From contig JBKHBH010000017.1 of the NCBI GenBank assembly GCA_046542505.1, positions 1-30,882 of the forward strand: a DNA stretch of 30,882 nucleotides, written 5' to 3'. The position numbers and the translations under genes are program-made. This DNA is from Thermovirgaceae bacterium. GTDB lineage: Bacteria; Synergistota; Synergistia; Synergistales; Thermovirgaceae. The notes beneath the pieces were generated by a model. The model was not told where the DNA came from. It ran no database searches and was given only the letters and a program-made list of their open reading frames with translations. Numbering within the stretch: position 1 is the first letter of the stretch; the number at the start of each line of letters is the position of its first letter. Positions 13,102 to 24,067 of the stretch are shown piece after piece.

Positions 13102-15186
13102 ATGGCGACGCGGAGACCGGAAAACATCAGGACCGTGGCTCTTGTGGGCCATGGGGGATCAGGGAAGACAACCCTAATGGAGGCAATCGCCTTCGATCTG
13201 GGGATGACGGCGCGCCTTGGAAACGTGGAGGACGGCAATACCCTCAGTGACTTCGGCGCGGAGGAACAAAAACGGCAGATTTCAATCAACACCTCCGTTT
13301 TTTCCGTGGAACACAAGGAAAGGCATCTACACATTCTGGACTGTCCGGGCTATGCGGATTTTATCGGCGATCTCAGGTCGGCGATGAGGGTCACCGACAA
13401 TGCCGTCATCGTCGTCAGCGGTGTCCATGGGGTTGAAGTGCAAACCGAGAAGGCCTGGGAGTTTTCTGAAGACCTGGGTCTTGCCTCAGTCTTCTACATC
13501 AGCAAGATGGAACGAGAGAACGCCGATTTCCAGAAAACCCTGGGAACCATAAAAGACTTCCTCTCCGAAAAGGCTGTGCCGCTTTTTCTTCCCATCGGCA
13601 GCGAAGCCGGCTTCAAGGGGGTCATTGATCTCCTTGGGGAAAAGGCCTATGTCTACAAGGGTGATGGAAGCATGGAGTTTACCGAATCCGGTGTTCCGGA
13701 GGACATGCAAAGTGATGTCGAAACCGCCAGGGAGGCGCTTTTGGAAAAAATCGTCGAGTCCGACGATGAACTCATGATGCGCTACCTGGAGGGCGAAGAA
13801 ATCGGGCTTGACGAAATCATGCCGGCTCTCCGGAAAGCTGTGAGGGACAGGGAGCTTTTTCCCGTTATTCCCGGTTCGAGTGCCGCCAACATAGGAGTCC
13901 TTCAGTTGCTCGACAGCATTGTCGACGTCTGCCCGGCACCAGCGGACATGCCTCCAAGAAAAGCCGTTTCAGGCGAGGAAGAAATTGCCGTTGACAGTGA
14001 TCCTGAAGGTCCGTTCCGGGCCCTTTGCTTCAAGATCATGGTCGACCCATACGTCGGCAAGCTTTCCTTCCTTCGTGTCTTTTCGGGATCCCTCTCCAGC
14101 GAAAGCCCGATTTTTAATGTCAACAAGGAGGAGGAAGAGCGGATCAGCGCCTTCAAGCTGATGACAGGGAAGGAAGGTACGGACGTCAAGGAGATCGTTA
14201 CGGGAGATATCGTCGCCATACCAAAGCTTCACAGCACCGTCGTGGGTGACACCCTTGCCGTGAAAGGCGAAAAGGTGACCTTCCCGCCTATCCAGTTCCC
14301 CAAACCAGTCTATAGCGTTGCCGTCCTCCCGAAGAGCCGCAATGATGAAGACAAGCTCGCAACGGCACTCGGAAAAATGCTGGAAGAAGATCCCACGCTT
14401 CGATTCGAGAAGAATCCTGAAACTCTGGACAGTGTACTTTCGGGAATGGGTGACCTGCATATCGACATTCTCCTGTCAAAGATCAAGGAGCGCTACGGCG
14501 TCGAGCTTGACACGAAAACACCGAGGGTCCCGTACCGGGAGACCATAAAGAAGCCGGCGAAGGCGCAGGGAAAATACAAGAAGCAAACAGGCGGCAGGGG
14601 ACAGTATGGAGACGTCCACATTGAGTTCCAGCCGCTCCCCAGAGGCGAGGGATTCAAATTTGAAGACAAGATCGTCGGCGGCGCCGTGCCGAAATCCTAC
14701 ATTCCCGCCGTCGAAAAGGGTCTCAGAGAGGCAATTCAGAAGGGTGTTTTGGCTGGATTCCCGACCGTCGATGTCAAGGCGATCCTGTTTTTTGGATCAT
14801 ACCATGACGTGGATTCGTCGGAAATGGCCTTCAAGATAGCGGCGTCGATGGCCTTCAAGAAAGCCATATCGGAGGCATCGCCTATTCTGCTTGAACCGAT
14901 CATGAACGTCGAGGTTGTGGTCCCCGAAGAGTATCTAGGCGATGTCATGGGCGATTTCAACGGGCGACGCGGAAAGATCATGGGAATAGACAGCCGAGGC
15001 CACCTTCAGGTCGTCAAGGCACAGGTTCCCCTCGCGGAGATGTTCAGATATGCCATTATTCTCCGGTCGATGACCTCGGGACGGGGGAATTTCACAATGG
15101 AATGTTCCCACTACGAAGAGGTGCCGCAGGACATTACGAAAAAGATCATCGCCCAGGCTGAAGCTGAGGCAGAGGAAGAAAAGTAA
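13102..15186 (+). CDS. fusA2: Elongation factor G paralog (EF-G2/EF-G-like), outside the str operon
   Basis: Full five-domain EF-G layout (GMGDLH, YRETI, KQTGGRGQYG, GSYHDVDSSEMAF, GDVMGD...RRG) with divergent G-domain motifs (GHGGSGKT, RQISI, DCPGY, SKME). AGGAGGT RBS. Confidence 0.92.
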   Translation: MATRRPENIRTVALVGHGGSGKTTLMEAIAFDLGMTARLGNVEDGNTLSDFGAEEQKRQISINTSVFSVEHKERHLHILDCPGYADFIGDLRSAMRVTDNAVIVVSGVHGVEVQTEKAWEFSEDLGLASVFYISKMERENADFQKTLGTIKDFLSEKAVPLFLPIGSEAGFKGVIDLLGEKAYVYKGDGSMEFTESGVPEDMQSDVETAREALLEKIVESDDELMMRYLEGEEIGLDEIMPALRKAVRDRELFPVIPGSSAANIGVLQLLDSIVDVCPAPADMPPRKAVSGEEEIAVDSDPEGPFRALCFKIMVDPYVGKLSFLRVFSGSLSSESPIFNVNKEEEERISAFKLMTGKEGTDVKEIVTGDIVAIPKLHSTVVGDTLAVKGEKVTFPPIQFPKPVYSVAVLPKSRNDEDKLATALGKMLEEDPTLRFEKNPETLDSVLSGMGDLHIDILLSKIKERYGVELDTKTPRVPYRETIKKPAKAQGKYKKQTGGRGQYGDVHIEFQPLPRGEGFKFEDKIVGGAVPKSYIPAVEKGLREAIQKGVLAGFPTVDVKAILFFGSYHDVDSSEMAFKIAASMAFKKAISEASPILLEPIMNVEVVVPEEYLGDVMGDFNGRRGKIMGIDSRGHLQVVKAQVPLAEMFRYAIILRSMTSGRGNFTMECSHYEEVPQDITKKIIAQAEAEAEEEK

Positions 15187-15280: not shown

Positions 15281-15335
15281 ATTGTTTCGGGACGAGCCTC
15301 CGACTCCCCTGATATCTGTATGGAGAGTGACGAAA

Positions 15336-16139
15336 ATGAATAAAGCCGTGACGAAGAAAAAGGTGTGGAAACTCTGCCGCGTTGGAACAGCCGGTTTTTT
15401 CGAAGACGTTGTTCTGAAGGAAAAGATTGTTGCCCTGATAGTGGATGGCAGAGAAGAGGTGTCGGTCGTTCTTACCCCAGGCGAAGAGGACCTGTGGGCA
15501 TTGGGTCACCTGTTTTCTAGGAGGATGATTCTTTCCAGGAACGATATTGTTTTTCTGGAAATCGGTGCAAACCGGATTTCAATACAGAGGAAAGTGAAGC
15601 GCAAAGGACTTTCCATTCGACATCGTTTTGTTGATACCGCCTCATCGTGCCTCACCGAAGCCGTGAAGGAAAATCCAAAGACGAAAGACAAAAGGCTTCC
15701 ACTAGAAGTACGGTGGCACGTGCCATACGCACTCGTGGAAAAGGCGGTGCAGAATCTTTCAGCCGCCCCTCTTTTCAGGCAGACGGGCAGCGTTCACGTT
15801 GCGATTCTGGCGGACACGAAGGGCAGAACCCTTTGTTGCGTCGAAGATGTCGGGCGGCATAATGCTGTGGACAAAGCTGTAGGTTGGGCTGTCAAAAACG
15901 GAGTAAAAACAATGGATTGCTTTCTGGCCGTTTCAGGGCGGCTGCCCGCCGACATGGTTTGCAAGGCTTTCGGTGCCCAAATCCCGTTTGTGGCAAGTAT
16001 TTCGGCGGCAACTGCATCGGGAATTGAAGCCGCTGAAAGGTTTGGCATAACGCTAGTGGGTTTTGTGAGGGAAGGACGGATGAATGTTTATTCCGTCCCG
16101 GAGCGTTTCGCGGAACTGGGTTCCGTAAATGGCCGCTAA
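15336..16139 (+). CDS. fdhD: Formate dehydrogenase accessory sulfurtransferase FdhD
   Basis: LTP.EEDLWALGHLFS, LFRQTGSVH, EDVGRHNAVDKAVG, SGRLPADMV.K, SISAAT..G, TLVGFVR. Adjacent to the FDH operon. ATG 15336 behind GGAGAG. Confidence 0.93.
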   Translation: MNKAVTKKKVWKLCRVGTAGFFEDVVLKEKIVALIVDGREEVSVVLTPGEEDLWALGHLFSRRMILSRNDIVFLEIGANRISIQRKVKRKGLSIRHRFVDTASSCLTEAVKENPKTKDKRLPLEVRWHVPYALVEKAVQNLSAAPLFRQTGSVHVAILADTKGRTLCCVEDVGRHNAVDKAVGWAVKNGVKTMDCFLAVSGRLPADMVCKAFGAQIPFVASISAATASGIEAAERFGITLVGFVREGRMNVYSVPERFAELGSVNGR

Positions 16140-16149
16140 TGGACAGATG

Positions 16150-16199
16150 AAAAAAGGTGCGGGTTCTCCGGCTAGAACCCGCACCGGTTATCTTTTTTT
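16150..16199. terminator. Bidirectional intrinsic terminator between convergent fdhD and the FNT gene
   Basis: A6-GGTGCGGGTTCT-CCGGCT-AGAACCCGCACC 12-bp stem. The A-run on the left is the U-tract for the minus strand; a T-run lies to the right. Confidence 0.8.
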
Positions 16200-17025
16200 A
16201 TTTGACGTCTTCCAGCTTGTTGCGGAAGACGAGGAAGTAAAATACTGCGACGAAGAGGATACCTCCAAGCATATTCCCCAGGGTGACGGGGATAAGGTTG
16301 TGAAGGTAGCCGCCCAGGTCGACGTTCGCAAGTTTTTCCGGAGCGATTCCAGAAGCCGAAACCACAGTGTCACTGCCTTTGAGAAACATGCCAAGGGCCA
16401 TGAAATACATGTTGGCGATGCTGTGTTCGAAACCTGATGCGACAAAGGTCATGATGGGGAAGAAGATGGCGAATATCTTGCCTACGATGTCTGTGGCCGC
16501 CATACTCATCCATACAGCGAGGACGACGATCCAGTTGCAAAGGATGCCCCGGACGAAGGCCTGGCCGATGGGAAGATTCATTTTCCCCGTGGCTATGGAA
16601 AGGGCGTTGATCCCAACCTGGCCATTCCAGAGCCCGGAGTAATAGATTAGTGCCGCAATTAAAAGAGACCCCAAAAGGTTTCCCAGGTAAACAAAGATCC
16701 AGTTCTTGGCGACTCCCGAGAAAGGCTGGCATCCGGCGAAGGTGCCGAGGGACATCAGGCAGTTTCCTGTAAAAAGCTCGGCACCGCCGATAACGACCAT
16801 CATGAGTCCTACGGAAAATACGGCGCCACCCAGAAATTTGGAAACCCCCACGCCGACAAATTTTGCCGCGTCCTGTGTGACGACAGTTGAAAGGAATCCC
16901 CCGAAGGCAATATAAGCTCCCGCCAGGATCCCCATGAGCAACATTTGCTGAACGTTCCAACTGCTTTTGGCCTTTGCGACGGCGCATGCGCTTTTGGCCA
17001 GATCCACTGGTGATTTGAAATTCAT
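16198..17025 (-). CDS. fdhC: Formate/nitrite transporter family channel (FdhC/FocA-like)
   Basis: GILAGAYIAFG, FSVGL...GAELFTGN, GILCNWIVVLAVW, FVASGFEHSIANM, VTLGNMLGG motifs. Last gene of the FDH cluster. Confidence 0.93.
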   Translation of the reverse strand: MNFKSPVDLAKSACAVAKAKSSWNVQQMLLMGILAGAYIAFGGFLSTVVTQDAAKFVGVGVSKFLGGAVFSVGLMMVVIGGAELFTGNCLMSLGTFAGCQPFSGVAKNWIFVYLGNLLGSLLIAALIYYSGLWNGQVGINALSIATGKMNLPIGQAFVRGILCNWIVVLAVWMSMAATDIVGKIFAIFFPIMTFVASGFEHSIANMYFMALGMFLKGSDTVVSASGIAPEKLANVDLGGYLHNLIPVTLGNMLGGILFVAVFYFLVFRNKLEDVK

Positions 17026-17065: not shown

Positions 17066-17071
17066 GATCTT

Positions 17072-17109
17072 GCCCAGGGAAACCGGACTCTTGACCGGTT
17101 CCCCTGGGC
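17072..17109 (-). other. Intercistronic 15-bp RNA stem-loop between the FDH large subunit and FNT genes
   Basis: Minus-strand RNA GCCCAGGGGAACCGG-UCAAGAGU-CCGGUUUCCCUGGGC pairs fully (one G-U). No U-tract follows. Confidence 0.7.
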
Positions 17110-17117
17110 TGAAACGA

Positions 17118-20100
17118 CTATGCTTTTATTACCTTGACGGCACTGATCTTGTAAGCAGGTGTTTCGGAATCAGGGTCGATCACTGCGGCGGTCAACATGT
17201 TTGCAGCAGCTTCTGCAAAATGGAAGGGCAAAAACACCATTTTCTGCGGAACCCTGTCGGTAAGTTTTATTTTCCCTTTCACTGAACCGCGTCTGGAAGT
17301 GACGATGATTTCTTCGCCGGGTCCCACACCGAGAGATTCGGCGTCAGCGGGGTTGAGCTCTATGAAGAGCTCCTTGATGTGGTCACCTGACGGGCCGCGA
17401 CGGCTCATGCTTCCCGTATGGTAATGGTAAAGAATGCGTCCCGTGGAAGCGAGGAAGGGGTATTCCTCGTCTGGCCATTCATGAGGAGCCTTCCATCTGC
17501 AGGGAGAGAAAACACCTTTTCCGTTCGGCCTGGCAAATTTGCCCACATGGAGATTCGGAGTTCCCGGGTGGTCCGGGGTTGGGCAGGGCCACGAAAGAGG
17601 AGCCTTATCGAGCCGGTCGTAACTCATTCCTGCGTAACTTGGAGTGCATCTGGCAATATCGTCGAAAATCTCCGAGGCGCTTTGATATTCCCACCCGGCT
17701 CCCAGTTTCCTTGCCAGGTTTGTGATGATTTTCCAATCGGTAAGAGCTTCATCGGGCGCTTCAACAGCCTTGCGGATACGCTGCACTGTACGGGTGGTAT
17801 TGGTGTAGGTCCCTTCCTTTTCAGCCCAGCATGCGGCAGGCAAAACAATGTCAGCCAGTTCCGCCGTTTCCGTCAGGAAGATGTCCTGAACAACGAGTAA
17901 AGACAGGTTTTGAAGACTGTGCCTGACATGTTCGCTGTCGGGGTCGCTGACCATAGGGTTTTCGCCCATGATGTAAAGGCCCTTCAAGTCACCGTTACCC
18001 GCCGCCTCCATCATTTTGACCACTGTCAGTCCTGACGACTCCGGCAGATCGCCGCATTTCCAGAGCTCTTTCATTCTTTTCCTGACGTCCTCGTCTGCCA
18101 CCTTTTGATACCCGGTATAGACGTTGGGGAGAGCACCCATGTCACATGCGCCCTGGACGTTGTTCTGTCCGCGCAAGGGGTTGACTCCCGTTCCGGGCCT
18201 TCCCATCATTCCGCACAACATTGCCAGATTGGCGAGAGACCGGACGTTGTCGGTGCCGCTCTGGTGCTGGGTAATACCCATGGTATAGAAAATGGCCGAA
18301 TCGGGCCCCTCCGCATATGTTCGTGCCGCTTTCTCGATAAGCCCGGCATCGACGCCGGTGATTTCGCTGGTCCTCTCCGGGGTGTATTCCTTCACTATTT
18401 CTTTCAGTGCTTCGAAATTTTCAACACGTTCTTTGAGAAACGTTTCGTCGTGCAGGTTATCCCGGAGGATGACGTGCATGAACCCGTTTATCAGTGCGAC
18501 GTCCGTTCCACTGGTTTGCCGGATATAGTGATCGGCATACCGGGACAGCTCTATGCTGCGGGGATCGCAGACGATAAGTTTTGCACCCTGCGATACCCGT
18601 TCCTTGATCCAGGAACCGATAACAGGGTGGGTTTCCGTTGTGTTCGATCCTATAACCAGCAGGACATCAGCCTGTTTCAGTGAGTCGAAATCGTTGGTCA
18701 TTGCGCCGCTTCCGAAGGTCTCGCCGAGACCTTTCACAGTGGCGCTGTGTCAGAGATGGGCACAGTGGTCGACGTTGTTTGTGCCCGCCACCTCCCTTGC
18801 GAAACGCTGGAAGAGATAATTTTCCTCGTTGGTGCATCTGGCCGAGGAGAAAAAGCCCAGCGCATCGGGACCATGCTTCTCTTTGATCTCGTTCATTCGC
18901 GTTGCAATAAAATCAAGGGCCTCAGACCACTCAATTTCACGGAACGTACCGTTTTCCTTGATGAGTGGTTTTTTCAGTCGATCTTCATTATGGACGAACC
19001 GCCACCCGAAGCGCCCTTTAACGCAATCGCGCCCCTTGTTCAACGATGTAAGGCTCTGGAAATCTGTCGTAACGTTGGCGATTTTCCCGGTTTTGGTATC
19101 TACATGTACATCGAGTTCGCACCCGACACCACAATATGAACAGACGGTCTTGACTGTTTTGGTGTATTCCGGCCGCGTGATTCCATGCTGTGTTTTTTCC
19201 ACGAGAGCCCCTGTCGGGCACACCTGAACGCAGAGGCCACAGTTGACACAGTCCGATTCATCGATCCCGCGGGAAACTCCGGGGCCAACGAAGGTCTCAA
19301 TGCCTCGTTTCTGGAAATCGATGGCATGGTAGATGGCCTGCTCTTCGCAAATACGGACACACTTTCCGCACTGGACGCATTTGTCCATGTTCCGCACGTA
19401 GAAGGGGTTTTCCTCTTCCGGCCGGTCCGGTCTGGAGAAAAGCTCTTTGGGGAACGCATCGGGCGACGCCTCGTATTCGATGCCGTAAGCTCTCAGCTTA
19501 CACTCATGTACGTCAGGGCACCCGCATTTCATGCACCGGCTGCCATCTTTTTTTACCTGTTCTTCCGTCAGGCCCATGTTGAACTCCTGGAAGGGCTTGA
19601 CAAGTCTCTTTGAGGCCTCAAAAAACGTGGGTTTTTCCTGGGGCTGCTTCTCTTCATCGAGGAAGTCTTCGGGCCCAAGGTCATCCCTGACAACATCGCA
19701 TTCGAAGGGACGGTGGGGGATGCCTTCTGAAATGTAGTGGTGAACGGATTCTGCAGTAAGATGGCCGTCACCGATCGCAGCTATCGCAATGTCCGGTCCC
19801 GTCTTCTGGTCGCCGCAAACGAACACCCCTTCGTCAGGGGTCGCGAAGTGTTCGTTTACAATCATTCGTTTGCCGTCATGAAGACCTTTCGGCAGAAGCG
19901 ATAGGTCCGTTCGTTGTCCGATGGCCGCAATGACGGTCTGCACTTCAAGAGTGAAAGTCTCTCCAGTCGGTACGGGTTTTCTGCGACCGGAGGCGTCAGG
20001 TTCGCCGAGAAACATTTTTTCGCAGACAATCCTCTCAACCTTTCCATCCCCCTCTACGGCTTTGGGAGCCGTCAGGAAAATGAATTCGACGCCTTCTTCC

Positions 20101-21221
20101 ATGGCTTCTTCAATCTCGATATCCTGGGCAGGCATTTCCTCGCGGCTTCTCCTGTATAGGACGGACACCTTTTCCGCGCCGCGGCGGAGGGCACATCTGG
20201 CGGCGTCCATGGCGGTGTTGCCGCCACCGATGACGGCCACATGCTTCCCGACGGTAACATCCTCGCCTGAGTTGACTTCGTAGAGAAAATCGATCCCTGC
20301 GAGAACGCCATCGAGATCCTCTCCCGGTACCCGCATTGGCATGGACGTCCAGCAGCCCATGGCCAGGACGACGGCGTCATTTTCTGACTTGAGGGATTCG
20401 AGAGTGATGTCTTTGCCAAAGGCCGTGTTCAGTTTGACGTCGATCCCGTGGTCCACAAGCCACTGGGTTTCCCTGTCGAGAATGGCCTGAGGGAGCCTGT
20501 AGTCCGGGATTCCGTAGCGCATCATTCCGCCGAGCTTGTTTTCTTTTTCGTACAGCGTAACCGAGTATCCCTTGAGACGAAGGAAGTACGCCGCTGAAAG
20601 GCCTCCGGGACCGCCGCCCACGACGGCGATCTTCTTGCCGTTTTCCGTTATTCCGGGTATTTCCCCCAATTGGTCGTTTTCGAGGGCCCAGTCTCCGATG
20701 AAACGCTTGATTTCCCTGATGGAGACAGGCTCGTCGTCGACGAAATTCCTGCGGCACTTTTCCTCGCATGGAGCGGGGCATACGCGGCCGATGCTCGCCG
20801 GCATGGTTATGTTTTGATGGAGGATATCCTGGGCCGCCTTGTAGTTCCCCTCGGCTGCGAGGTTGACGTACCCTTTGACGTCTCCCCTGGCCGGGCATGC
20901 GAGCTGGCAGGGAGGCCGGCAATCGCCGACATGGTCAGAGAGAAGCAATTCGAGGGCAAGTTTTCTCGCTCCGGTTACCCGCTCTGTATGGGTTTCAATC
21001 TCCATTCCGTCCTGAACAGGCATGGAACATGCGCGGACAAGGCTTTTGGAGCCTTTTATGTCCACAAGACAGAGTGAACAGCCTCCGTGAAGAGAGAGGT
21101 TCGGATCATAACACAGTGTCGGAATGTCTATGCCGTTTTCCTCGCAAAGCTCCAGGATCATTTGGCCCGGATATCCTTTTACTTCTTTCCCGTTCAGCGT
21201 AACTGTTAACCTACGGTCCAT
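17118..21221 (-). CDS. fdhA: Selenocysteine-containing formate dehydrogenase large subunit fused to NuoG-type Fe-S domains and a GltD/NfnB-like FAD/NADPH domain (~1367 aa; in-frame UGA at 18750-18752)
   Basis: ATG 21221 behind AGGAGG. [2Fe-2S] (TLC...GGCSLC...C), GGGPGG and GGGNTAMD/YRRS Rossmann motifs, 2x CxxCxxCxxxC, CSYCGVGC...CVKG, NNVDHCAHL-TGA-HSATV in frame with the downstream ORF, LRGQNNVQGACDMG, STGR..YHYHTG. Confidence 0.93.
18703..18749 (-). promoter_or_regulatory. Bacterial SECIS element immediately 3' of the Sec UGA
   Basis: After the UGA: CACA-GCGCC-ACUGUGA-AAGGUCUC-GGC-GAGACCUU-CGGAAGC-GGCGC. Perfect 8-bp upper stem, G-starting apical loop at +25, possible GCGCC/GGCGC lower stem. 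Confidence 0.8.
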
Positions 21222-21235
21222 GATAACGGCCCTCC

Positions 21236-23011
21236 TTACTCGACGCTGATCGCATTGACGGGGCAGACGGCCTTGCACTGCCCGCAGCGCACGCAAATGG
21301 AATCATCGATGACATGCGGTTCTTTAACTTTCCCGCTGATCGCATTGACAGGGCAGACCTGGGCACACTTCGTGCATCCAATGCAAACCGAGGGATCGAT
21401 AGTGTAATGTATAAGATTTGTGCATACCTTGGCAGGACATTTTTTGTCCTTGATGTGCGCTTCATATTCATGACGGAAATACTTGAGAGTCGTCAACACG
21501 GGGTTCGGCGCTGTCTGGCCGAGTCCGCAAAGGGAGCCGTCCTTGACCTTATAGGCCATGTCCTCAAGGAGGTCGAGGTCTTCGGGCTTCCCTTTCCCGT
21601 CGCAGATCCTTTCGAGGGTTTCGAGCATCCGCTTGGTCCCGATACGGCAGAAAGGACACTTGCCGCAGGATTCCTTCTGGACGAAGCTCAAAAAGAATTT
21701 GGCCACGTCGACGATACAGGTATCTTCATCCATGACGATCATGCCTCCGGAGCCCATTATGGCGCCCGTGGCGTTTATGGATTCATAGTCAACGGGGGTA
21801 TCGAGCTCGGACTCGGGCAGGCAGCCGCCCGAAGGCCCTCCAAGCTGGACGGCTTTGAAGGGCTTGTCACCGGGGATACCGCCGCCGACCTCAAAGATGA
21901 CGTCCCTGAGAGGCATCCCCATGGGGACTTCAACAAGGCCGCCCTTTCGGATTTTGCCTGTTAGGGCGAACACCTTTGTCCCACGGCTTTTACCCGTTCC
22001 GTACTGGTAAAAAGCGGCAGACCCGTTGCGGATGATCCAAGCCACATTGGCAAGGGTTTCCACGTTGTTGATGTTTGTGGGTTTTCCCCAGATGCCCTTG
22101 TTGGCAGGGAAGGGAGGCCTTGGCCTCGGCATGCCCCGTTTCCCTTCAATAGAGGCCATTAGCGCCGTTTCTTCTCCGCATACGAAGGCTCCGGCACCTT
22201 CCTTGATATAGATGTCGAAGGAAAAGCTGGTTCCCAGAATGTTGGTGCCGATAAACCCTCTTTCCTTGGCCTGTTCGATGGCGATATTCAGTCGTTTTAT
22301 GGCAAGAGGGTATTCGGCGCGACAGTATATGATGCCCTGGGATGCGCCTATAGCGTATCCGCAGACGAGCATGCCTTCAAGGACGCGGTGTGGATCTCCT
22401 TCGAGGACCGACCGGTCCATGAAGGCTCCCGGGTCGCCTTCGTCGGCGTTGCAAACAACATATTTCACGTCAGACTGAGCCTTCTGGGCGAATCTCCATT
22501 TGAGCCCCGTGGGGAACCCCGCTCCCCCGCGGCCCCTGAGACCGCTTTCAAGTATTTCCTCGATAACCGTATCAGGGTCCATTTTTTTAAGGGCCTTTTC
22601 AAGTCCCTTGTATCCAGCGGCCTGGATGTATTCATCTATGCTGGTGGGGTCGATCCTGCCGCAATTTTCGAGCACGATGCGTACCTGCTTGGAGACCATG
22701 GAGGTCTCTTCGGCTTCGAACTCCGTGCTCAGGACCACATTTTCTTCCAGTGGGGTTTTCCCTATCACGTGTTTTTCAAAGATTTCACGAGCCCTGTCGG
22801 CTGTCACTTCCCCGTAGAGTGTTTTAGTGCCACCCTGCTCGATTTCCACGAGAGGTTCACGGAAACACAAACCGATGCAGCCGACTTCCTGTATCTCGAC
22901 ATCTTCATGAGATGCGGTGGCTTCTCTGAGAGCCTCGTAGACAGGTCGTGCCCCGGCGGCGATACCGCAGCTTGCCATTCCCACCTTGATCAACGTTTTC
23001 GAGCTCATCAC
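21236..23011 (-). CDS. NuoF/HydB-like (BfuB/HylB-type) FMN- and NADH-binding subunit with extra Fe-S domains
   Basis: N-terminal thioredoxin-like Fe-S domain (SCGIAAGA...GCIGLC), GRGGAGFPTG, CNADEGDPGAFMDR, FVCGEETAL, GGPSGGC, ESCGKCPFCR...LCGLG, H....CPAKVC, C-terminal 2x[4Fe-4S]. Confidence 0.95.
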   Translation of the reverse strand: MMSSKTLIKVGMASCGIAAGARPVYEALREATASHEDVEIQEVGCIGLCFREPLVEIEQGGTKTLYGEVTADRAREIFEKHVIGKTPLEENVVLSTEFEAEETSMVSKQVRIVLENCGRIDPTSIDEYIQAAGYKGLEKALKKMDPDTVIEEILESGLRGRGGAGFPTGLKWRFAQKAQSDVKYVVCNADEGDPGAFMDRSVLEGDPHRVLEGMLVCGYAIGASQGIIYCRAEYPLAIKRLNIAIEQAKERGFIGTNILGTSFSFDIYIKEGAGAFVCGEETALMASIEGKRGMPRPRPPFPANKGIWGKPTNINNVETLANVAWIIRNGSAAFYQYGTGKSRGTKVFALTGKIRKGGLVEVPMGMPLRDVIFEVGGGIPGDKPFKAVQLGGPSGGCLPESELDTPVDYESINATGAIMGSGGMIVMDEDTCIVDVAKFFLSFVQKESCGKCPFCRIGTKRMLETLERICDGKGKPEDLDLLEDMAYKVKDGSLCGLGQTAPNPVLTTLKYFRHEYEAHIKDKKCPAKVCTNLIHYTIDPSVCIGCTKCAQVCPVNAISGKVKEPHVIDDSICVRCGQCKAVCPVNAISVE

Positions 23012-23502
23012 GCGGTGCCCCCCTTGTCTCTGTCCCTGTAGGTTTCGAGCACGTCTACCGCCTTTTCCGGGCTCAGTCTCCCGTGAACTTCACCGTTAAC
23101 CATCATGACCGGCGCAAGACTGCAACAGCCTAAACAGGCGACGAAGTGCAGCGAAAACATCCCGTCGTCAGTGGTACCCCCTTCTTTGATGCCCAGATGG
23201 CGCTCCAGCTGCTCGCCGATAAGGGATGAACCCTGTACGTGGCACGCCGTGCCCCGACAGAGGCGGATCACATATTTTCCCTCAGGTTGAAAGCGAAACA
23301 TGGAATAAAAAGAAGCGACGCCGAAAAGTTCCGCGGATGGAATGTTCAGCGACCGGGAAACATGGTCAATCGCCTCTTCAGGCAGATAGCCCAAGGTTTC
23401 CTGAATTTTTGAAAGGAGGGCGATTGTGGTGCCCTTCTTTCCGCGAAACAGCTCTATTATCGGATCGAGCCGCTCCTCGAGGTTTTCTGTTGCTAGTGTC
23501 AT
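23008..23502 (-). CDS. NuoE/HydC-like (BfuC-type) [2Fe-2S] subunit
   Basis: Q..LGYLP, GVASFYSMF, CRGTACH...CLGCCSLAP. ATG 23502 behind GGGAGGAG. Stop overlaps the next start. Confidence 0.95.
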   Translation of the reverse strand: MTLATENLEERLDPIIELFRGKKGTTIALLSKIQETLGYLPEEAIDHVSRSLNIPSAELFGVASFYSMFRFQPEGKYVIRLCRGTACHVQGSSLIGEQLERHLGIKEGGTTDDGMFSLHFVACLGCCSLAPVMMVNGEVHGRLSPEKAVDVLETYRDRDKGGTA

Positions 23503-23613: not shown

Positions 23614-23631
23614 AAGTTATGATTATAACAA
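23614..23631 (-). promoter_or_regulatory. Extended -10 promoter of the FDH operon overlapped by a Rex-like palindrome
   Basis: Minus strand TTGTTATAATCATAACTT contains TG-T-TATAAT (23630-23622) and the dyad GTTAT-N4-ATAAC. Confidence 0.6.
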
Positions 23632-23727
23632 ACTTTTCGAATCAGTGAATACAAGGAAGGGGCGATCCTGTACAAATTTTCGCCGGAATTTGAATATATT
23701 GACACAAAGTACGTAGGGAAACCAGAC

Positions 23728-23755
23728 TTGACAGTCTTGTTGCCATTCGTATAAT
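23728..23755 (+). promoter_or_regulatory. Consensus sigma70 promoter for the glutaredoxin gene
   Basis: TTGACA (23728-33), 16 bp spacer, TATAAT (23750-55). Confidence 0.8.
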
Positions 23756-23821
23756 TACCACTGGAAGGTATATTTCGAAGGATAAACATACGGAGGTTTT
23801 TCTCGAAAAGGAGTGGTGACA

Positions 23822-24067
23822 TTGTCAAATGTAAAAGTGTACTCGACACCCACGTGCCCCTGGTGCACGAAAGTCAAGGAATATCTTGGATCTCTTGGTG
23901 TTGAATTTGAAAATATTGACGTGAGCAAGGACAGGGATGCCGCCATGGCCATGGTGAAAAAGACGCGGCAAATGGGTGTTCCTGTTACGGAAATCGGGGA
24001 AAACTACATCATCGGTTTCGACAAGGATTCTATCGACAAGGCGCTCGAGGAAGAAGGACTAAAGTAG
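23822..24067 (+). CDS. Glutaredoxin-like protein (NrdH/YruB family)
   Basis: VKVYSTPTCPWC, QMGVPV, IIGFD. TTG 23822 behind AGGAGTGGTGA. Confidence 0.92.
   Translation: MSNVKVYSTPTCPWCTKVKEYLGSLGVEFENIDVSKDRDAAMAMVKKTRQMGVPVTEIGENYIIGFDKDSIDKALEEEGLK

Follow-up and report, generated by a model that had tools for sequence, protein, structure and literature searches.

Among described enzymes of the Bfu family (Schut et al. 2022, PMC9304861), two classes come closest to the locus reported here. In the first class, Nfn-Bfu (Type 1), comprising StnABC of Sporomusa ovata (8oh5/8oh9) and NfnABC of Caldicellulosiruptor saccharolyticus (9bov/9bp5) and Thermococcus sibiricus (9n5u), the genes stand in the order C-B-A and a GltD domain is inserted in a NuoG-like frame. 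The FdhF-like domain of these chains (963-1178 aa) has an incomplete pterin site and no catalytic activity. Electrons in C. saccharolyticus NfnABC pass from FAD through clusters A7, A6, A3, A2 and A1 to the B1-FMN-C1 site, and A5 and A4 join this path at A2 as a dead end at the incomplete pterin site (PMC11829005). The corresponding branch of StnC has been called an evolutionary remnant and its FAD non-bifurcating (PMC10482914), and StnC had no formate dehydrogenase (FDH) activity in a formate:methyl viologen assay (PMC7483475). In the second class, Type 1 Fdh-Bfu (predicted, for example, in Carboxydothermus hydrogenoformans), as in the Type 3 Fdh-Hyl of Gottschalkia acidurici, a pterin site beside A5 feeds BfuBC (PMC9304861); these chains of ~900 aa have no GltD/FAD/NADP(H) domain, their BfuB comes from another tree branch, and in Type 1 Fdh-Bfu formate is the sole third substrate. 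Here we describe a bfuCBA operon whose predicted A subunit, BfuA, appears to carry both catalytic heads intact. It lies in a 30,882-nucleotide stretch (the window) of contig JBKHBH010000017.1 from a Thermovirgaceae bacterium of the phylum Synergistota.

Three coupled minus-strand genes fill positions 23502 to 17118, exactly the span given in the original prediction, which had been made from the letters alone. The first, bfuC (23008-23502; StnA/NfnC/HydC-like, NuoE-like), encodes 164 aa, and bfuB (21236-23011; StnB/NfnB/HydB-like, NuoF-like; 590 aa) starts at 23011/23008 and overlaps the bfuC stop. The large bfuA open reading frame (17118-21221; 1367 aa) is preceded by a Shine-Dalgarno sequence that overlaps the bfuB stop. 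Residues 1-500 of BfuA (19722-21221) hold an N-terminal [2Fe-2S] domain and a complete inserted GltD/NfnL-like FAD/NADP(H) domain (about residues 100-500, with the GltD-type Fer4_20 and Pyr_redox_2 block at 101-486). Residues 501-680 (19182-19721) hold a CxxCxCxxxxxC motif and a 2x[4Fe-4S] region that would form a shared wire. Residues 681-1367 (17118-19181) form a complete FDH module of the type binding Mo or W by bis-pyranopterin guanine dinucleotide (Mo/W-bisPGD). Every motif that the original prediction had named for the two modules was present: GGGPGG at 202, GGGNTAMD (GGGNTA) at 332 and YRRS at 356 in the FAD/NADP(H) head, and C694-C697-C701-C733-K735, U824-H825, LRGQNN at 1016 (with R1017), TGR at 1260 and HYHT at 1266 in the FDH head. 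The domain check suggested with it likewise came out as expected, with the Pfam domains Fer2_4, Fer4_20, Pyr_redox_2, Fer4 dicluster, Molybdop_Fe4S4, Molybdopterin and Molydop_binding in that order.

The N-terminal half aligns with StnC and NfnA, with K172 and R242 at the positions of StnC K170 and R239, a match to the StnC-type, non-bifurcating FAD site, and with the A7 cysteines kept and the GxGxxA motif and A7 Lys ligand of the inserted domain in place. The C-terminal half aligns with true FDHs through domain IV, and matches to StnC and NfnA end near residue 1200. It has all the features of an FdhF-type Mo/W-bisPGD enzyme (proximal [4Fe-4S] CxxCxxxC...C plus Lys, selenocysteine-His, catalytic Arg and domain IV) and scored 868.7 against a cut-off of 666.25 with the NCBIfam Fdh-alpha model TIGR01591. 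An AlphaFold model of residues 1-1200 (108 aligned sequences; predicted local distance difference test (pLDDT) 91.3, predicted template modelling score (pTM) 0.82) superposed over its full length on StnC (8oh5_C) and NfnA (9bov_A) with template modelling (TM) scores of 0.86-0.88. Its superposition on E. coli FdhF gave 2.1 Å over 518 columns; a single-sequence fold of residues 168-1367 reached a pLDDT of 37 and was discarded. None of the listed PDB matches was a solved chain with both heads intact. Unlike Stn/NfnABC, then, the 1367-aa chain has a complete site (Sec824-His825, Arg1017 and domain IV), accompanied by focA and fdhD, and unlike Type 1 Fdh-Bfu, with which it shares a pterin site beside A5 in sequence and fold, it has an FAD/NADP(H) domain. 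As it lacks neither the pterin site nor the FAD domain, BfuA reads as a hybrid of the two named classes, resembling an Stn on one side without being typical of that group. Both active sites look intact, as originally proposed.

The FDH head depends on recoding. A single in-frame TGA at codon 824 (18750-18752, minus strand), where translation table 11 breaks the gene into two open reading frames, occupies a position that is Cys in orthologues and precedes His825. Directly 3' of it lies a bacterial selenocysteine insertion sequence (SECIS) hairpin (18703-18745, minus strand; -23.9 kcal/mol, z -3.7). All 20 TGA loci compared retain the core of this hairpin, and none of the four Cys loci has it. 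Four hairpin codons were identical at synonymous positions in 16/16 loci, compared with 0-10/16 for codons further downstream. Because the site is Cys-homologous, the SECIS is conserved and the genome encodes the selenocysteine (Sec) machinery (selA, selB and the tRNA-Sec gene selC), we assign codon 824 to Sec. The original prediction had also warned that the UGA split would hide the gene from pipelines. This holds for the Sec forms, which gene callers split and which are annotated as plain oxidoreductases (five of the 120 best-listed database matches were clusters cut at 823 aa), but not for the Cys orthologues, whose database entries have the full length and the name 'formate dehydrogenase major subunit'.

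The partner subunits confirmed the proposed HydABC/Bfu-type core. BfuB has an N-terminal thioredoxin-like domain with the B5 ligands C14, C44 and C48, the B1 ligands C448, C451, C454 and C494, and two C-terminal CxxCxxCxxxCP motifs, at 542 and 572, for the ferredoxin clusters B3 and B4. Its FMN/NAD loops, ADEGDPGAFMDR at 188 and EGAGAFVCGEE (GAGAFVCGEE) at 270, are of the bifurcating type (PGAFM, GAFV) and match the upper block of Supplementary Fig. 10 in PMC9304861. The B2 site is formed by C431, H518, C524 and C529, with a Cys (C469) at the variable fifth position; this site of three Cys and one His is absent from non-bifurcating homologues (PMC9304861). BfuC supplies the [2Fe-2S] C1 ligands C82, C87, C123 and C127 beside BfuB and BfuA in the gene order C-B-A, so that every Bfu feature that can be checked by sequence was found. 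The best solved matches of BfuB were StnB (8oh5_B) and two NfnB chains (9bov_B and 9n5u_B). The core thus carries the hallmarks of bifurcating Bfu enzymes of the Stn/NfnABC kind.

We consider it probable that the product is a cytoplasmic Type 1 Bfu heterotrimer that links formate, NADP(H), NAD(H) and ferredoxin through its two-headed A subunit. The heads would sit on one Y-shaped iron-sulfur wire, on which the A5-A4 branch would end in a complete, Sec-containing Mo/W-bisPGD site instead of a dead end. Since the heads would meet at A2, upstream of the bifurcating gate, formate and NADP(H) could exchange electrons directly through A5-A4-A2-A3-A6-A7, bypassing the gate. With E0' of -420 mV for formate and ~-380 mV in vivo for NADPH (table in PMC9304861), this exchange would be near equilibrium and tend slightly towards NADP+ reduction. 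Formate or NADPH could also be bifurcated, reversibly, by BfuBC to NAD+ and ferredoxin, and NADH with reduced ferredoxin could in turn reduce CO2 or NADP+. Cofactor loading, activities, coupling, physiological direction and the choice between Mo and W are what we infer here.

The four-substrate node of the original prediction is the reading we think most plausible; one point in its favour is that, in several phyla, N-halves of the Stn kind repeatedly carry an intact FDH head. A Bfu enzyme with two third substrates is in itself not new: FdhFeFe-Bfu (HytABCDE-FdhA of Clostridium autoethanogenum) also has two, H2 and formate, and interconverts H2/CO2 and formate directly (PMC9304861). In that enzyme separate subunits carry an H-cluster as the second head, whereas the second head of the present enzyme is an NADP(H) flavin domain within the FDH chain. 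If the reading is right, this would be the first Bfu enzyme with two third substrates in one chain. Pairing an FDH with a GltD/NfnL-like FAD subunit gives formate:NADP+ activity in Thermococcus onnurineus Fdh3 (PMC8965080) and Moorella thermoacetica FdhAB (PMC5736913); unlike the present enzyme, these have separate subunits and no BfuBC core, and with Fdh3 NADP+ and ferredoxin did not act synergistically (PMC8965080). Literature searches (in which subscription journals were mostly uncovered) and the PDB yielded no characterised enzyme or Bfu class of this architecture, in agreement with the original prediction. Its suggestion that Bfu surveys might already catalogue such an enzyme was not borne out: the classification table of PMC9304861 has no dual formate/NADP(H) single-chain class, and the architecture was not found in the available portions of PMC2702500, PMC6085437, PMC8371737, PMC10356935 and PMC13714276. 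NfnL-like domains in proteins annotated as FDH have been reported (PMC12018979; Figs S7-S8) and may bear on novelty.

Several observations weigh against four linked substrates. The branch clusters of StnC have been regarded as structural (PMC7483475, PMC10482914), and the A5-A4 branch could therefore conduct poorly. StnC C114, mutation of which halves Stn activity (PMC10482914), aligns to Val115 in BfuA. The AlphaFold model has neither cofactors nor domain IV. The FDH site has been lost in two genomes of the same family, which indicates that this head is dispensable in some lineages. As to read coverage, in Logan contigs from four DNA runs the locus was covered in pieces only, and the module junction (on the C-terminal side of the 2x[4Fe-4S] region, about residues 690-780) was bridged by a single contig, from run X1, possibly the source sample. 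The A4/A5 (C1/C2) branch was left as an unexplained remnant by two structure papers, and the window's enzyme makes that question testable, together with the tightness of the bifurcating gate when the mid-potential wire has two inputs.

The alternative that survives best, though we judge it unlikely, keeps two activities on one core without cross-talk: formate and NADPH would each be bifurcated, and direct transfer from formate to NADP+ would be slow owing to cluster potentials or spacing at A2-A4 or at A7. The unusual Lys ligand of A7 tunes electron flow, and a model without cofactors gives no cofactor distances. The meeting of both branches at A2, upstream of the gate, argues against it, as do A chains without BfuBC, which need a head-to-head path. 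Such chains kept both heads in 20/20 larger regions from Desulfobacterota (picked for an intact-type frame; neither BfuB nor BfuC present) and in 6/6 regions read at 18 kb from the gammaproteobacterial order of genome G041, which argues for working formate-to-NADP transfer within the chain.

The fused GltD-FDH chain is widespread, occurring in Gammaproteobacteria, Desulfobacterota and Chloroflexota, mostly without BfuBC where the context was seen; all counts given here are from samples and are not a census. Among the best 120 of 4984 protein matches (from 7999 candidates scored), 110 had at least 1300 aa, all 110 with the Cys-His and catalytic Arg intact, and among the named carriers are Vibrio, Shewanella, Aeromonas, Photobacterium, Ferrimonas, Clostridiales, Thermoplasmata and Zhurongbacter. 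Matches were found in 17 of 151 genomes from the order of G041, all 17 intact and with no BfuB within 1.5 kb, and G041 itself has only an ordinary NuoF genome-wide. In Desulfobacterota, the phylum of G042, 82 of 301 genomes matched, and the best 30 loci comprised 13 intact chains without BfuB upstream, six decayed chains with BfuB and 11 loci that were neither of these. The picture is different in Bacillota (55 of 301 genomes matched), where none of the best 30 loci had the site and 29 had BfuB upstream, and in Synergistota outside the window's family (73 matches in 268 genomes), where all 18 genomes read had a decayed site and BfuB.

Within the window's family, 12 of 19 genomes carried full or nearly full intact chains (nine Sec, three Cys) and one a chain intact up to the contig end; two had only the FDH part at contig ends, two were truncated and two had none. 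BfuB lay upstream wherever sequence was available. Outside the family, an intact site with a complete BfuB was seen in two cases, L452 (Chloroflexota) and L361 (metagenome). A profile scan of genome contigs (full-length alignment) and a metagenome scan with P0011 listed mostly plain FDHs, and neither is a census. On this sampling, the expectation of an unusual architecture fits the complete trimer, which appears rare, but not the A chain itself.

The intact BfuBC-free chains with Cys- or Sec-His-Arg were at L185-L201 and L222-L227 (order of G041; L102 is from Aeromonas sobria) and L202-L221 (phylum of G042), and further intact chains without neighbouring BfuB or BfuC were at L353, L355, L356, L377 and L454. 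Each is a candidate one-polypeptide NADP-dependent formate dehydrogenase, for which literature searches returned no characterisation. The chain without BfuBC is common in Vibrio, Shewanella, Aeromonas, Desulfobacterota and others, and such stand-alone chains may be of use as single genes for regenerating NADPH with formate or for reducing CO2.

The three modules also occur in another arrangement, with a NuoE-like gene, a BfuB without ferredoxin domain that runs into the GltD domain and then an intact FdhA (L048, L049, L064, L105, L367-L370, L375, L389, L391, L402, L412, L415, L420, L422, L425, L426, L433, L436 and L437); B2-type ligands are retained in most of these loci. At 27 Chloroflexota loci (L275-L301), a short NuoF-like gene without the B2 motif precedes a chain made of the N-terminal domain plus GltD, and no FDH match was found in the 1.5 kb read behind that chain.

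A second alternative, which we rate marginally lower still, is that only one head matters, the enzyme being either an Nfn-Bfu/Stn with a recent, little-used FDH graft or an Fdh-Bfu with a passenger FAD domain. Modules have been repeatedly swapped and lost, and 1241-1243-aa forms from the same family (P0003, P0004; L013, L014, L229, L235) have lost Sec-His, Arg and domain IV. These forms retain 47-53% identity to intact FDH halves and appear to be decay caught early; the P0004 cluster includes a protein assigned by name to Thermovirga lienii DSM 17291, which has been listed as a potential StnC (PMC7483475). A single order offers a natural series, from chains with an intact Sec or Cys site through fresh truncation (1241 aa) to full decay. 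Against a single working head, both halves of the window's chain are under strong purifying selection: relative to the closest relative, G005, the ratio of nonsynonymous to synonymous divergence was 0.054 (0.074/1.38) in the GltD half and 0.07 (0.026/0.36) in the FDH half. The SECIS is kept at synonymous sites, and focA and fdhD have travelled with the FDH head. Both were named as neighbours in the original prediction and were found there: the formate/nitrite channel gene (FNT, FocA-like; 16198-17025, minus strand; 275 aa) directly after bfuA as the last gene of a bfuC-bfuB-bfuA-focA unit, and fdhD (15282-16139, plus strand), for the sulfurtransferase of FDH maturation, convergent with the operon.

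The genome context also speaks against a single working head. No second FDH and no other GltD/NfnB was found in the assembly, which is 93.5% complete, so that a gene not found there may still exist; the cell would have the bfuCBA product as its sole FDH and its sole connection of the Nfn type. In seven sister-family genomes an Fdh-Bfu-type gene (~900 aa) and an Nfn-Bfu-type gene (1080-1150 aa) stand at separate loci, jobs that the one operon would cover here. The assembly encodes Fhs, GcvP-like proteins and two glycine/sarcosine-type reductase B genes with component C, together with a NiFe hydrogenase adjoining a second BfuABC and a further group-4-like complex; neither an FeFe hydrogenase nor an RnfC above cut-off was found in it. 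In this apparent amino-acid fermenter, the four-substrate enzyme could supply NADPH from formate, for example for the glycine/sarcosine-type reductases, or NADH and ferredoxin electrons could be disposed of as formate through the FocA-like channel. This would bear on models of formate and NADPH flow in Synergistota and other anaerobic-digester organisms.

Pterin biosynthesis is represented by moaA, moaC, two moeA-like genes and a MobA-like gene. The metal could be Mo or W: no tungstate-specific transporter was identified in the genome, in which PF13531 gave no clear ModA/WtpA and PF12849 matched only a phosphate-binding protein. The genome also holds two further molybdopterin oxidoreductases of 654-674 aa (G000:C5 and G000:C50; L460 and L461), which fall below every named family cut-off, one of them near an aldehyde:ferredoxin oxidoreductase-like gene.

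Very unlikely, in our view, is a non-bifurcating trimer in which BfuBC would be a plain NAD(H) diaphorase and the complex a formate:NAD(P)+ oxidoreductase or transhydrogenase. Sequence features predict bifurcation rather than prove it, and dual chains stand beside a B subunit without ferredoxin domain in two Bacillota genomes (L450, L451; G1282, G1278). There, a Sec-containing dual A subunit adjoins a short BfuB of that kind, followed by a second C/B-GltD operon, and the enzyme is possibly a non-bifurcating formate:NAD/NADP oxidoreductase. The window's BfuB, however, carries the ligands of B2, B3, B4 and B5, and the three solved chains that it matches best are the bifurcating StnB and two NfnB chains.

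Over residues 1-700, the window's BfuA is 78-94% identical per 100-residue bin to same-genus Cys orthologues (74-91% for the second one). Beyond residue 700, identity falls to 55-73%, compared with 70-83% to the stand-alone Fdh-Bfu of family f8, and the FDH half as a whole is 73-78% identical to stand-alone Synergistota Fdh-BfuA, sharing its SECIS and downstream focA. The GltD-half tree placed the window's chain within a Synergistota Nfn-BfuA clade (SH-aLRT 100), and the FDH-half tree placed the window's genome (G000) and G005 inside the stand-alone Fdh-Bfu clade beside f8 (97, 99), apart from other family members (100). All trees were FastTree or quick IQ-TREE runs on hand-picked subsets. Holding the family together on the FDH-half tree was rejected by an approximately unbiased (AU) test (p-AU 0.034), which used a family-defined group but was run after the first tree had been seen. 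In the sister families, focA adjoins the Fdh-Bfu genes at the loci read, in the same position behind the operon, and focA with convergent fdhD (also convergent at L237 and L455) matches the stand-alone Fdh-Bfu operon type.

The FDH head and focA of the window derive from that operon type, and this copy is a recent mosaic. The original idea of an ancestral-like link between Fdh-Hyl and Stn, in its form as a pure ancestral relic, was rejected for this copy, since its FDH half groups with the stand-alone Fdh-Bfu of another family. The mosaic recurs in a second species, G005 (92% identity), and in the FDH half synonymous sites have diverged from G005 four times less than in the GltD half, which points to recent exchange. 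That the pterin site uses a substrate other than formate/CO2, or that the TGA is a true stop in a broken gene or an assembly chimera, is scarcely credible: the substrate is assigned from family membership and one contig bridges the junction, but TIGR01591, the Sec-His-Arg triad and adjacent focA and fdhD point to formate, the mosaic in G005 argues against a chimera and the conserved SECIS and Sec machinery against a stop.

Exchange of modules runs in both directions and takes place at the iron-sulfur region that they share. Intact chains of Chloroflexota and Bacillota also nest among Stn-like N-halves, with FDH halves that join local FDHs, and the GltD tree does not unite the intact forms in a single clade (nine changes, p-AU 6e-5). 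The family's first dual enzyme may have been either a graft or a survival of an older dual ancestor, since divergence of the decayed halves is too great for their placement; in Synergistota Nfn-BfuA these C-halves have very long branches, with weakly best scores against Synergistota FDH halves. A re-arming cycle could account for this pattern: an Nfn-Bfu with a dead FDH domain would regain a live one by recombining, at the iron-sulfur region, with a local FDH gene, and the domain would in time decay once more. On the full combination, namely a working form of the 'remnant' branch, with a formate:NADP+ oxidoreductase of one chain docked on the bifurcating core, four substrates equilibrated by one enzyme, a re-arming and decay cycle of Nfn-BfuA across phyla and an uncharacterised family of single-chain NADP-FDHs, our expectation is evenly balanced. 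At L230, L231 and L232, which come from two genera of the window's family, a different BC module precedes the dual A subunit, with a separate small thioredoxin-like gene and a BfuB that is only 66% identical and on its own branch; the BC end has thus been swapped too.

Remaining features of the locus concern expression and neighbouring genes. An intergenic hairpin between bfuA and focA (17071-17109, minus strand; -33.7 kcal/mol, z -7; no T-run after it) may set the enzyme:channel ratio in the mRNA, and a terminator-like 12-bp hairpin (16156-16185, no strand) is common to the convergent focA and fdhD. A sigma-70-like promoter candidate with an extended -10 (23622-23649, minus strand) lies ~120 nt upstream of bfuC; it is a consensus match only, and the promoter region holds four sigma-70-like sites compared with 5.1 expected by chance. 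A Rex-type operator was rejected (one match, inside bfuB, compared with 1.5 expected). Back-to-back with the operon, a divergent glutaredoxin-like gene (23728-24067; CPWC motif) has a perfect sigma-70 consensus (12/12). At 13102-15186 lies an elongation factor G (EF-G)-like gene, with another EF-G-length GTPase elsewhere in the genome; the window's copy may be an EF-G2-type paralogue.

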